A stretch of DNA of 57,538 nt from Chlamydiota bacterium (GCA_050049995.1 JASFVE010000001.1:1-57538); one strand, 5' to 3'. Shown: positions 18,443 through 21,801, counted from the first letter of the stretch. Notes: a model not told the origin generated them from the sequence alone. Translations and numbers: made by a program.

Positions 18443-19582
18443 CTACCAACGTATACATTTAAGTAGCTCTTCAGGAAGGTCTAAAAAAGCCTCTTTCTTA
18501 AGCCTTGTTACAGATAGGTTAACCTTCTTAAGGTTTTTAGCTTTAGAAAATAGTTCTCTAAGAAAGTTTTCATTAAGATGATAAATACCGTTTAAGGAAA
18601 GTTGCTCCAGTCTGTTTACCGCAGGAAGATAAGAAAGTCCCTCTCCTGTTGTCTTAGATCCGGATAAGCTAATTTCTTTAAGATTCTTGCCATTAGCAAA
18701 TAACTCTTTTAAAAAGTTTTCCTCAAGCTTATCGCAGTAGTATAAAAAGACACTCTCTAAATTTTCCCCTGTAATATAAGAAAGCCCCTTGCCTGAGATC
18801 TCACAACAAGAACAGTAAAGTTTCTTTAGCTTTGTTGCTTTGATAAAAAACTTTTCCAGAAAACTTTCAACTAGATAGTTTGACCCTAAATAAAGCTCTT
18901 CAAAAGAGTTTTGTTCAGGTAAATAAGAAAGCCCTTCTCCTGTAACTTTAGTGCTTTCTAAATCAAGCTTTTTTAATAATGTAGCTTTGGAAAAAAACTC
19001 TATAAGAAAATTTTCTCTAAGTCCACTGCACCTTCCCAAAACAAGATGTTCAAGTTGGTTATCATTTGGGATAGAAGCAAGACACTCCCCGGTTATTTGA
19101 GTGTTGCCTGAAAGATTTAAATACTTAAGATTAGGACATAATCTAATGACTTCCGTAACTAGAGCATCACATAAGCACGTTGTTGGAAAGTTAAAAGAAG
19201 GAATCCCCTTTCTTGTTTCTTCAGGAATTTCACTTAAAAAAGAAATAAAAGCACCTGGATCACTAGAGTATCTGACTCTTAGAAAGGTTGAAAGAAACTT
19301 TCCTACAATTGCATAACTAGGATCAATCTTTTTATTAAATCTTTGTAAAGCTAGCTCTTCAAAAAAAACTAGACGTTTACTGAAAATTTGGGTTTCTACA
19401 TCTGTAAAGCTTAAAGTAGACTGTATAAGAGCAAACTGTCCCAATAACGTTTGAGATGCTTGATTCCAAAGACTATTGATTTTACGTGCTGCCATCTGCT
19501 CTTTAAACGGTAAAAAGGATAGTATCTGTGAGTGAGAAGTTATAGGGAGATCCATAATATTTTTAGAAATTGGAGCTGTCAT
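18443..19582 (-). CDS. F-box domain plus leucine-rich-repeat (FBXL/CC-type LRR) eukaryote-like protein
   Basis: 379 aa. The N-terminus LPITSHSQILSFLPFKEQMAARKINSLWNQ fits the F-box consensus (LP....IL.FL.....L...R.V...W). It is followed by four roughly 50-aa super-repeats (ENFL.E.F.KA..LKKL.L....TGEGLSYLP....LE.L.L). Confidence 0.8.
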   Translation of the reverse strand: MTAPISKNIMDLPITSHSQILSFLPFKEQMAARKINSLWNQASQTLLGQFALIQSTLSFTDVETQIFSKRLVFFEELALQRFNKKIDPSYAIVGKFLSTFLRVRYSSDPGAFISFLSEIPEETRKGIPSFNFPTTCLCDALVTEVIRLCPNLKYLNLSGNTQITGECLASIPNDNQLEHLVLGRCSGLRENFLIEFFSKATLLKKLDLESTKVTGEGLSYLPEQNSFEELYLGSNYLVESFLEKFFIKATKLKKLYCSCCEISGKGLSYITGENLESVFLYYCDKLEENFLKELFANGKNLKEISLSGSKTTGEGLSYLPAVNRLEQLSLNGIYHLNENFLRELFSKAKNLKKVNLSVTRLKKEAFLDLPEELLKCIRW

Positions 19583-19626
19583 ATATAAATACCTTTTTTT
19601 TAAAGGCGAAAATTATAAGAAAACTC

Positions 19627-20787
19627 TTATTTATTTAAACAGCTTACAAGTTGATCTATTAAAGTAAGTGACACCCAAGGATCTGGATACGTAATAGATA
19701 AGTTCATAGACTTTTGATGACTAATGCAAGCAATGTAAGGACAGTTAAGCATAGCTTTTGCTGCAAATGATGTGTAAATAATCTTACCTTCTACTTCCTT
19801 TGAATAAGTAGTCTTACCGGCATTTGATAGAAAAAAACTTACATTAAACTCTAGTGGATCTAATTGCCCTCTTAAAATGGCGTAATGCTGCAATAACAAC
19901 TTGGGAGAATTCATGTGATCTAGCAATTGCTTCTGGTAATCCTTAGCAATGGCATAAACGTCGCTTGATTGATCAATATTTAAAAAAATAAAGGCACCAA
20001 CTGGCGCTGTGATCAAAGCTTCACAAGGTATTTTATTGTTAAGTCTTTTTCTCAAATCAACAGCAGCACCAATGCAAACAGTTCCTTTTAAAGAAAGGGC
20101 CTGAATAAAATGCGCTGTAAGCAGTGCGTTGACACTAAGCTGTTTTTTCTTTGCTGTAGATAGTAACTTTTGAAAGTATCGCGAAGAGACTTGAAAAAAC
20201 TTCATTCTAGCTGTTTGTTCTTCATAGCCAGTGTCAGAGCGATCTAGTATTGGAGCTACTCTAGGATTGCCTAAAAGATACTGGTTTAGCTTTTGAGCAT
20301 ATTCAGCCGATTCTTGCAAAGAGGGTTTCCAAGTAAAGTACTCTTCAATCGACTGTGGCATGGGTAGCTTATTGACTGAAGAATTAGGAAAATAAAGATA
20401 CTTAGTAAAGTCATCAATCACATTAAGAGAAGAAGCTACATCTGCTATTGCATGATGTAAAATCATAAGAAAATGGGTTTTATCATGTTCTCGCCAAAAA
20501 AGTATTTTTAATAAATTATTTTTAGGATTTAAGTCATAAGAAAACATGGTCTCATTATTTTTTATAGGACCCACATGTTGTATGTATGATTCATTTATCG
20601 TAGGCATCTCAACAAAGCAATTATCGGAAATGATAGAGCGGAGAAAAGGATGTTTAATGACTAATTTTGAAGCCGCTGATCGCACTTCTTGTTCGGAGAA
20701 TTGTTGCAATAAGCCAAATCTGAAATAGATAGGCATATTCGCATCAATATAGTCAATTTCAAGCTCTACTGCAGATCTTTTTGTCAT
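19627..20787 (-). CDS. stand-alone condensation-domain-like acyltransferase (HHxxxD superfamily)
   Basis: 386 aa. The motif LMILHHAIADVASS lies near residue 110, as in NRPS C-domains, PapA5 and WS/DGAT (HHxxxDG). There are no adenylation or carrier domains in cis or in adjacent genes. Confidence 0.55.
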   Translation of the reverse strand: MTKRSAVELEIDYIDANMPIYFRFGLLQQFSEQEVRSAASKLVIKHPFLRSIISDNCFVEMPTINESYIQHVGPIKNNETMFSYDLNPKNNLLKILFWREHDKTHFLMILHHAIADVASSLNVIDDFTKYLYFPNSSVNKLPMPQSIEEYFTWKPSLQESAEYAQKLNQYLLGNPRVAPILDRSDTGYEEQTARMKFFQVSSRYFQKLLSTAKKKQLSVNALLTAHFIQALSLKGTVCIGAAVDLRKRLNNKIPCEALITAPVGAFIFLNIDQSSDVYAIAKDYQKQLLDHMNSPKLLLQHYAILRGQLDPLEFNVSFFLSNAGKTTYSKEVEGKIIYTSFAAKAMLNCPYIACISHQKSMNLSITYPDPWVSLTLIDQLVSCLNK

Positions 20788-20799
20788 AATAGCTTTTCA

Positions 20800-21801
20800 C
20801 TATAAATACTGAGGATCAATAACAACGTGCTTAATATTTTTCCGATTATATGTATAGGTAATATGGACTAATCCATCATCAGATTGAATAATGGCCGGAT
20901 AAGAAAACTCCCCTGGTTTGAACTCTAAGGTTAAAGAAAGCTCCCAAGTTTTAGCATTATCTGATGATATGGCAAGGTTTAAAGGAGTTCTACTCTTTTT
21001 AGAGTTGTTAAACACAAGCAAAACCCTACCATCTTTCAAAGTTACAGCGTCAATGCCTGAGTTGGGATTAAGTAAAGAAGTCTCTTGCGCATCACTCCAG
21101 TACATCCCATCTTGTGAAGATGCCTCACAAATCCTTCCTGTCTTTCTAGACCTTGTTAGTATTTTGAAACTACCATCATCTAATTGAAAAATAGTAGGTT
21201 GAATGATCCCAAAAAGATCATCCGGCAAATTTATAGGATTACTCCTAATCCATGTTTTGCCATGATCACGAGTTATTTCTACGTAAGAGCCCCATCTATG
21301 ATAACTTTCTACTGAGGAACCACATAAAAGAACATCATTTGCTAAGATGGGCTTGTTTTTTATGGGTCCATTAATGCCTGCAGGCAAATCAATTTGCTCA
21401 GACCAGGTATTTCCATTGTCATGAGAAACTTTAAAACAGCCTGACCAGTATAAAAAGGATTTACCTTCTTTATAAAAAAGATAAACATCTCCGTTGGGAT
21501 AGGTGAAAAGAACAGGGTTCCAAAGAGGTACTTCACTAGTAGCTGCCACCTTTGGCTTAGACCACACACCATTTTCGCTTTTGGAAATCCAAATATCAAC
21601 ATCACCATTTCCTTCTTCACTTCCAGCAAAATAAGAACATAGTAAGGTTTGGTCTTTTGCCTGGGTGAGAGTAGACGCATGGCAGCTTTTAAAAGGAGGT
21701 TTTTTAAATATAAACTCCTCTTTCAAAATAGCTGATTGCTTAGCAGAAACAGCAGAAGAAAATAAAGTCATATACAACGCTACCGTTTTGAGAAAGGTCA
21801 T
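20800..21801 (-). CDS. secreted BNR/Asp-box repeat beta-propeller (sialidase-like) protein
   Basis: 333 aa with signal peptide MTFLKTVALYMTLFSSAVSA. Asp-boxes are SHDNGNTW, TRDHGKTW, SSDNAKTW and degenerate SQDGMYW. It starts 3 nt after the ftsH stop. Confidence 0.75.
   Translation of the reverse strand: MTFLKTVALYMTLFSSAVSAKQSAILKEEFIFKKPPFKSCHASTLTQAKDQTLLCSYFAGSEEGNGDVDIWISKSENGVWSKPKVAATSEVPLWNPVLFTYPNGDVYLFYKEGKSFLYWSGCFKVSHDNGNTWSEQIDLPAGINGPIKNKPILANDVLLCGSSVESYHRWGSYVEITRDHGKTWIRSNPINLPDDLFGIIQPTIFQLDDGSFKILTRSRKTGRICEASSQDGMYWSDAQETSLLNPNSGIDAVTLKDGRVLLVFNNSKKSRTPLNLAISSDNAKTWELSLTLEFKPGEFSYPAIIQSDDGLVHITYTYNRKNIKHVVIDPQYL

Follow-up and report, generated by a model that had tools for sequence, protein, structure and literature searches.

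We analysed a 57,538-nt stretch of DNA from a Chlamydiota bacterium (GCA_050049995.1, JASFVE010000001.1:1-57538), here called the window, and focused on three accessory genes that lie between the convergent housekeeping genes ftsH and pnp. The upstream anchor of this interval is ftsH (21805-24555, minus strand), which encodes a 916-aa protein with the Pfam domains AAA and Peptidase_M41, and the convergent anchor on the opposite side is pnp (16263-18356, plus strand), which encodes a PNPase of 697 aa, also assigned by Pfam. Beyond ftsH lie tilS and then lptF/lptG, and beyond pnp lie rpsO and tadA (Pfam). The 3.4-kb interval itself, with a gap content of 3.45 kb, consists of three co-directional open reading frames (ORFs) on the minus strand. 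Next to ftsH is a BNR_2 gene (20800-21801; 333 aa; Pfam BNR_2, E 5e-75), followed by an acyltransferase gene (19627-20787; 386 aa; Pfam PapA_C and Condensation) and, across an AT-rich spacer of 44 nt (19583-19626, minus strand), by an F-box/leucine-rich repeat (LRR) gene (18443-19582; 379 aa; Pfam F-box, LRR_6 and LRR_4). A first-pass annotation of the sequence had described three such co-directional genes in 3.4 kb between pnp and ftsH, and the ORFs and Pfam matches confirm its domain calls.

Spacing within the interval is tight. The BNR start codon, an ATG, lies 3 nt past the ftsH stop, just as the first-pass annotation had stated, and the further spacers measure 12 nt (BNR/acyltransferase), 44 nt (acyltransferase/LRR) and 86 nt (LRR/pnp). 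No terminator-like hairpin was found that would separate ftsH, the BNR gene and the acyltransferase gene. At the end of the minus-strand LRR transcript, the sole strong structure is a hairpin at 18365-18399 (-19.1 kcal/mol, z = -6.3), which carries no U-tract on that strand; on the plus strand its perfect 15-bp stem is followed by T6 (U6 in the transcript), and it serves as the intrinsic terminator of pnp. A promoter-like TTTAAA-16-TATAAT arrangement at 19639-19612 overlaps the 3' end of the acyltransferase gene and the 44-nt spacer, which is a hint only, as promoter-like matches in the region are at the level expected from shuffled sequence. The three accessory genes are probably expressed by read-through from ftsH, and their spacing fits the earlier proposal that they are embedded in the ftsH transcription unit.

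At third codon positions, the GC content (GC3) of the three genes (0.255-0.296) lies within the range of their neighbours (0.232-0.326), and the GC profile is flat. Because GC3 falls within this range, the three genes show no sign of recent foreign origin; the GC3 comparison suggested by the first-pass annotation thus gave no foreign signal. The only tRNA gene in the window is a tRNA-Asn at 1215-1288, and none lies near the interval. No long flanking direct or inverted repeats were found around the interval, and Pfam detected no integrase or transposase domain in it. The tRNA, repeat and Pfam scans were therefore empty where the earlier annotation had reported no flanking integrase, insertion sequence element, tRNA or direct repeat. 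A classical genomic island or mobile insertion is ruled out by the lack of an adjacent tRNA, flanking repeat, integrase and compositional deviation. A PADLOC search of the three proteins returned no defence system, and no Rfam family of structured RNA was detected across 15500-26200.

The closest relative and the fate of the LRR gene

The nearest relative of the window is Chlamydiae bacterium CG10_big_fil_rev_8_21_14_0_10_35_9 (GCA_002773835.1), recovered also from ENA and JGI assemblies, with 87-98% protein identity across the block (97% amino-acid identity for ftsH and 98% for pnp). Its gene order is lptG-lptF-tilS-ftsH-BNR-acyltransferase and then directly the convergent pnp; the LRR gene is absent. 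The BNR and acyltransferase genes are 1-12 nt apart in both genomes. Between the two genomes, the ratio of nonsynonymous to synonymous substitution rates (dN/dS) is 0.067 for the BNR gene and 0.153 for the acyltransferase gene, compared with 0.035 for ftsH and a span of 0.023-0.179 for ftsH, pnp, tilS, lptF, lptG and tadA together. Judged by these ratios, the BNR and acyltransferase genes are functional resident genes under purifying selection, and the same comparison gave no sign of pseudogenisation in either of them.

The 125-bp spacer of the relative aligns to the window in three pieces. One matches the pnp-side spacer of the window including the terminator hairpin, which is conserved in the relative. 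Another corresponds to the final 29-36 nt of LRR coding sequence, at the 3' end of the gene (18443-18478, minus strand), which comprises the last ~10-12 codons and the stop; here the window ends in PEELLKCIRW-stop, and the homologous, stop-containing remnant in the relative reads P-stop-ELLKCIHR-stop. The third piece is a 9-mer, AAGGAATCC, identical to window positions 19198-19206 inside the LRR gene. As the relative has no LRR gene, yet keeps a remnant of its 3' end, this gene is gained or lost separately from the other two.

On the alignment, an ancestral LRR gene probably decayed in the CG10 relative. In the opposite scenario, nothing was lost in the relative; an F-box/LRR copy lacking its 3' end inserted in the window lineage, and its reading frame now runs on into old spacer sequence. 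Such a gain would explain why the protein stops mid-repeat with a non-repeat tail (LLKCIRW) encoded by sequence common to the relative's spacer, and it would be in line with the rapid birth and death of F-box/LRR families (PMC4209131). However, the shared sequence reaches into the repeat-derived LPEE codons, the 9-nt filler AAGGAATCC in the relative is an internal LRR segment (with an estimated chance of about 0.004-0.01), and there is no donor paralogue in the window. We consider a gain possible and rather unlikely. A metagenome scan with the acyltransferase profile, for an outgroup to this indel, found only the CG10 relative, and the next acyltransferase homologues (L088, L089, L094 and L095; 46-49% identity) sit in unrelated contexts.

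The ftsH-pnp junction across Chlamydiota

A search of genome contigs with FtsH returned 80 loci, of which ~46 are other chlamydial loci at 54-67% identity, and the window proteins were mapped onto them. Throughout these ~46 loci, lptG-lptF-tilS-ftsH and pnp-rpsO-tadA are conserved phylum-wide, with ftsH and pnp convergent. The ftsH-pnp gap could be measured in 21 loci, and in 8 further loci pnp lies more than ~10 kb from ftsH. The measured gap spans 1-4254 bp (median 1844 bp) and exceeds 500 bp in 19 of the 21 loci and 1 kb in 16; at the other five junctions of the block, median lengths are 2-203 bp. Since unrelated genes occupy the gap in 19 of the 21 genomes, environmental chlamydiae as a rule carry genes at this junction, and the window represents one local state of it. 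A contiguous block, as the first-pass annotation had described it for Chlamydiaceae (around CT838-CT844 in C. trachomatis), is thus not the normal state in these lineages. Its view that the three genes stand outside the housekeeping block was borne out: no BNR, acyltransferase or LRR homologue was found downstream of ftsH in any of the 46 other chlamydial loci, which makes the position of the trio lineage-specific, and the possibility it had raised, that all chlamydial families carry the same trio here, found no case among them (0/46).

The occupants of the gap are diverse. Among 30 gap ORFs scanned, 21 had no Pfam match. Assigned products that occur at one locus each are a GHKL ATPase (HATPase), a collagen-repeat protein, a choloylglycine-type (CBAH) hydrolase, an AbiEii toxin, a cyclic-nucleotide (cNMP)-gated channel and an HNH endonuclease. 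The AbiEii toxin, of the type IV toxin-antitoxin/abortive infection kind, and the HNH endonuclease are encoded at L033:13400-14266(-) and L040:14808-15233(-), respectively, so this junction also receives genes of a selfish or defence type. In three loci (L009:14331-16139(-), L013:~15166-16968(-) and L019:~6385-8274(-)), the same slot, directly downstream of pnp, holds a gene for a 600-aa protein that joins a class II Asp/Asn/Lys-type tRNA synthetase core to a YbaK-like editing domain. This domain fusion is unusual, and its copies are 75% identical to one another. One of the surveyed contigs (L017, CAMAVL010000063.1) is titled 'Chlamydia trachomatis', but its FtsH is ~64% identical to that of the window and falls among the environmental lineages; the label looks unreliable.

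The convergent arrangement offers a possible explanation for this variability. An insertion between convergent 3' ends would break no promoter, and read-through from the essential tilS-ftsH unit would express the inserted genes; we infer that the slot is permissive for these two reasons. Genes would then enter the convergent ftsH/pnp 3'-end junction one at a time, with some being lost again. The Chlamydiaceae plasticity zone is a site of differing gene content between chlamydial genomes. The ftsH/pnp slot resembles it in being a set chromosomal site whose gene content differs in otherwise syntenic genomes; unlike the plasticity zone, it lies at another locus, is much smaller (0-4.3 kb) and varies across environmental lineages. 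This makes the ftsH/pnp junction a practical place to seek lineage-specific genes in chlamydial metagenome-assembled genomes (MAGs).

Predicted products of the three genes

The 379-aa protein consists, in order, of an F-box-like motif, a conserved linker and LRRs with a periodicity of 49 aa (147 nt). LRR_6 (33.9 bits) and LRR_4 (33.1 bits) both score over their cut-offs. By inspection, the N-terminal spacing LP-x6-IL-x-FL...LW matches the F-box consensus and is common to the homologues P0128 and P0130; in P0128, the F-box-like domain reaches 19.7 bits, below the cut-off of 24.3. Twelve homologues were found, the best with 36-43% identity, in Chlamydiota MAGs with several paralogues. At the nucleotide level, 20-nt motifs recur at 18629-19215 exactly 147 nt (49 codons) apart and form a double-LRR super-repeat, of which a fourth, more divergent copy holds the 9-mer kept in the relative's spacer. 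A 614-aa LRR homologue, P0127, has in its repeats a sub-threshold match to the Nup98 autopeptidase S59, a eukaryote-type domain (25.4 bits, cut-off 28.4), which is probably spurious.

We regard the 379-aa protein as a candidate effector for type III secretion, one that would mimic the substrate adaptor of the host Skp1-Cullin-F-box (SCF) ubiquitin ligase. In Parachlamydiaceae, representatives of F-box/LRR families carry functional type III secretion signals, and these families evolve by birth and death (PMC4209131). Both type III secretion and binding to host Skp1 were shown for those other families (PMC4209131). The closest parallel in architecture is NEX1a of Neochlamydia (Domman et al. 2014, PMC4209131), which likewise has an N-terminal F-box-like motif, a conserved linker and variable C-terminal LRRs; NEX1a-type families also vary in presence and absence between near relatives. 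In contrast to the NEX1a families, the window protein is single-copy in 57.5 kb and has ~12 homologues, from uncultured Chlamydiota. By analogy with other chlamydial F-box/LRR genes, the turnover of the LRR gene may be a case of birth and death, and the gain or loss of a single F-box/LRR effector candidate between two near relatives fits that model.

The 386-aa protein matches PapA_C in Pfam (33.5 bits, cut-off 30) and falls just under the cut-off for Condensation (27.6 bits, cut-off 30.6). It carries an HHxxxD motif, HHAIAD, at residues 111-116 (H111-H112-A-I-A-D116), which is invariant in all five family members, and the family profile matches condensation (C) domains and PapA5. Its AlphaFold2 (AF2) model (predicted local distance difference test (pLDDT) 79.5, predicted template modelling (pTM) score 0.81) has a two-lobed chloramphenicol-acetyltransferase-like fold. 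Foldseek aligned the model to AzeD, PapA5, SgcC5 and condensation, epimerization and cyclization (C/E/Cy) domains with E-values of 1e-19 to 1e-15 and template modelling (TM) scores of 0.6-0.78, and its matches also include TRI3. The protein shares with PapA5 (1Q9J), SgcC5 (4ZNM) and AzeD (8S6L) a stand-alone length of ~390-430 aa, the two-lobed fold and the invariant HHxxxD; it differs from them in its identity of 12-16%, in having no gene for a polyketide synthase (PKS), nonribosomal peptide synthetase (NRPS) or carrier protein nearby, and in belonging to a family of ~10 clusters in unrelated contexts. A PapA5 (phthiocerol dimycocerosyl transferase) orthologue is ruled out by NCBIfam, where the PapA5 models score 36.5 and 23.2 bits and would require 396 and 716. 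Pfam detected no carrier-protein, PKS or NRPS gene among the window neighbours, and no export signal was found in the acyltransferase. The protein most likely works in the cytoplasm as a thioester-dependent O- or N-acyltransferase, in which the histidine of HHxxxD would transfer an acyl group from a thioester donor (acyl-carrier protein (ACP) or acyl-coenzyme A (CoA)) to a hydroxyl or amine.

This acyltransferase family is very small. A word-indexed search returned only 4 homologues, and a HMMER search of 1.84 billion representatives returned ~10 clusters at E<1e-30, made up throughout of stand-alone proteins 373-398 aa long; weaker matches past these clusters are NRPS C domains. The homologues sit in five other contexts, all different and none with a BNR gene. 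Their surroundings include GNAT and LuxR genes, an sctT-like gene or a cyo operon on the upstream side, a response regulator together with SpoU, and genes of unnamed function. The sctT-like gene lies on a contig with 29% GC, where a homologue of 48% identity (L088:602-1756) directly follows an ORF that looks SctT/FliR-like by eye (L088:1-582). On an 862-kb contig with 35% GC (L093, GCA_030427725.1), a member with 34% identity follows a cytochrome bo3 (cyo) operon and a carbonic anhydrase gene, and the contig also carries DUF1796 and GerE/LuxR genes. The family is scattered among different, possibly host-associated, bacteria.

The BNR protein is the only one of the three with a signal peptide. 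By inspection, its N-terminus is a Sec-type signal (MTFLKTVALYMTLFSSAVSA, followed by KQ), and residues 2-24 form a helix in the model. The AF2 model (pLDDT 94.1) is a six-bladed beta-propeller, which Foldseek aligns to GH33 sialidases with TM-scores of about 0.8 (7LBU, 1EUS, 8GN6 and NEU1). Across 39 diverse homologues, the residues C40-H41-A42-S43-T44, Q201, R217, R271, E293 and Y301 are invariant. Y301 aligns with the tyrosine of the GYT motif of 7LBU and would thus occupy the position of the nucleophile. In the whole family, the invariant C-H-A-S-T lies on the first inner strand, where by position the arginine of the GH33 RIP motif is expected, and the glutamate partner of the GH33 tyrosine (strand D-E-N-K-V-V-E) aligns in phmmer with the invariant Q201, an ambiguous assignment in that the profile alignment gaps this segment. 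Compared with the exo-alpha-sialidases of Micromonospora viridifaciens (1EUS) and Cutibacterium acnes (7LBU), the BNR protein has the same six-bladed propeller, a Tyr301 aligned with the nucleophilic tyrosine and the conserved arginines 217 and 271, but would carry CHAST at the RIP-arginine position and Gln201 in place of the Glu partner, has only 15-19% identity and has no sialic-acid pathway genes nearby. These apparent active-site substitutions suggest a chemistry or substrate unlike that of classical sialidases. The protein is predicted to be an exported sialidase-fold enzyme with a non-canonical site, and not a proven sialidase; the JGI annotation for proteins of this kind reads 'predicted neuraminidase'. 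Its substrate is probably an acidic sugar, and its predicted location, by Sec export, is periplasmic or at the surface.

The BNR family is large and strongly conserved: Chlamydiae, Verrucomicrobia, Omnitrophota and land plants together have at least 7827 homologues, which typically share 50-58% identity with the window protein. Five other Chlamydiae or relatives each carry the gene at a different locus, never with an acyltransferase or LRR gene. One copy follows dTDP-/GDP-sugar genes; dnaA and a photolyase gene lie close to another and gyrB close to a third, a fourth adjoins genes for an RDD protein and a PIN toxin, and the fifth has murJ and SWIB in its vicinity. These five contexts outside the lineage show no recurrent lipopolysaccharide (LPS) neighbourhood, only one of them adjoining nucleotide-sugar genes. 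The plant homologues (rice, Leersia, Rhynchospora, Amborella and the liverwort Calypogeia; P0094, P0096, P0104, P0105 and P0116) have 49-53% identity at >90% coverage and are as close to the window protein as most bacterial homologues; the BNR family may be another gene common to Chlamydiae or other bacteria of the Planctomycetes-Verrucomicrobia-Chlamydiae (PVC) group and plants. The locus draws attention to two enzyme families of obligate intracellular bacteria about which little is understood, one a very widespread sialidase fold with a non-canonical active site, shared with plants, and the other a very rare free-standing condensation-type acyltransferase.

Interpretation of the locus

We consider it probable, at roughly 0.7, that the interval holds a lineage-specific trio of functionally unrelated accessory genes, assembled by stepwise gain and loss in an ftsH-pnp slot that is variable phylum-wide, and not a host-manipulation module. 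Within this interpretation, co-transcription, the enzyme activities, the secretion route and the polarity of the LRR indel are our inferences. The size of the three families differs widely (at least 7827 BNR homologues, ~10 acyltransferase clusters and 12 LRR homologues), and in ten homologue contexts of the BNR and acyltransferase genes the three never co-occur. Taken as sequence distributions, these data indicate that the three families have separate histories.

The first-pass annotation had instead proposed that a host-manipulation module of three genes, each with a secreted or host-facing product, entered the pnp-ftsH interval in one piece. The genes are indeed co-directional and tightly packed, the BNR protein has a signal peptide, and the F-box/LRR architecture is typical of chlamydial effectors. 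However, the proposal of one insertion is largely refuted by the CG10 relative, which carries the BNR and acyltransferase genes alone, and the homologues elsewhere lie at separate loci, with wholly different distributions and no co-occurrence at the other loci examined. The secreted or host-facing character assigned to all three products fits the BNR protein, by its signal peptide, and may fit the LRR protein, by its effector-like architecture, but not the acyltransferase, which is without a signal and probably cytoplasmic; GC3 is native throughout. We regard the module as very improbable. The apparent three-gene island is better seen as a local state of a junction that is filled differently in almost every environmental chlamydial lineage.

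FtsH controls LPS synthesis in E. coli. A narrower explanation is that the BNR and acyltransferase proteins form an envelope-glycolipid remodelling pair, in which trimming of 3-deoxy-D-manno-oct-2-ulosonic acid (Kdo) or another ulosonic acid is coupled to O- or N-acylation and both genes are co-expressed with FtsH beside LptF/LptG, the LRR gene being a passenger. Both genomes retain the two genes 1-12 nt apart, and purifying selection acts on the pair; a BNR homologue elsewhere overlaps an operon for dTDP-/GDP-sugar biosynthesis, and sialidase-like Kdo hydrolases that edit LPS are known (PMC3573668). The nearest parallels, the two-component Kdo hydrolases KdhAB/KdoH1-2 of Francisella and Helicobacter (PMC3573668), are likewise sialidase-like exported enzymes that act on the cell's own envelope in a Gram-negative intracellular bacterium. 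Unlike the KdhAB genes, however, the BNR gene is flanked by ftsH and the acyltransferase gene, with no small KdhB-like membrane ORF adjacent, and its family occurs also in plants. Moreover, lptFG-tilS-ftsH are adjacent phylum-wide irrespective of the BNR gene, BNR homologues elsewhere have no recurrent neighbours and never an acyltransferase, acyltransferase homologues never lie beside a BNR gene, and the predicted compartments differ (periplasm for BNR, cytoplasm for the acyltransferase). Such a pair is unlikely in our view. Slightly less plausible still is a bolder version, in which an undescribed envelope-remodelling couple is wired to the 3' end of ftsH beside lptFG, which would tie the expression of LPS editing to that of LPS quality control, and in which, separately, the ftsH/pnp junction is a mechanistically targeted gene-capture site phylum-wide; the couple could be a sialidase-fold hydrolase, whose His/Gln-substituted site acts on Kdo or another ulosonic acid, together with the condensation-type acyltransferase.

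Several points weigh against a trio of unrelated genes gained and lost stepwise. In both genomes the BNR and acyltransferase genes are adjacent and evolve under purifying selection, which leaves a small chance that these two are functionally linked. The Pfam F-box match of the 379-aa protein (PF00646, residues 9-44) has 20.5 bits, exactly the cut-off, and no LRR paralogue is present in the window or in loci L001-L007, so that the window itself shows no paralogue expansion. Co-transcription is a prediction from gene spacing. The survey covers environmental lineages, true Chlamydiaceae lying outside the 80 loci. Two genomes represent the lineage and no outgroup shares their arrangement, so that the order in which the genes arrived and the direction of the LRR indel are tentative.

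Two further ORFs of the window, at 36165-37232 (minus strand, 355 aa) and 53028-54008 (plus strand, 326 aa), have no Pfam match at E<=1e-5 and lie in housekeeping surroundings. The remainder of the window carries the usual chlamydial housekeeping genes, including those for RecD2, MetRS, LigA, GlgB, a MiaB-like protein, HflX and citrate synthase.

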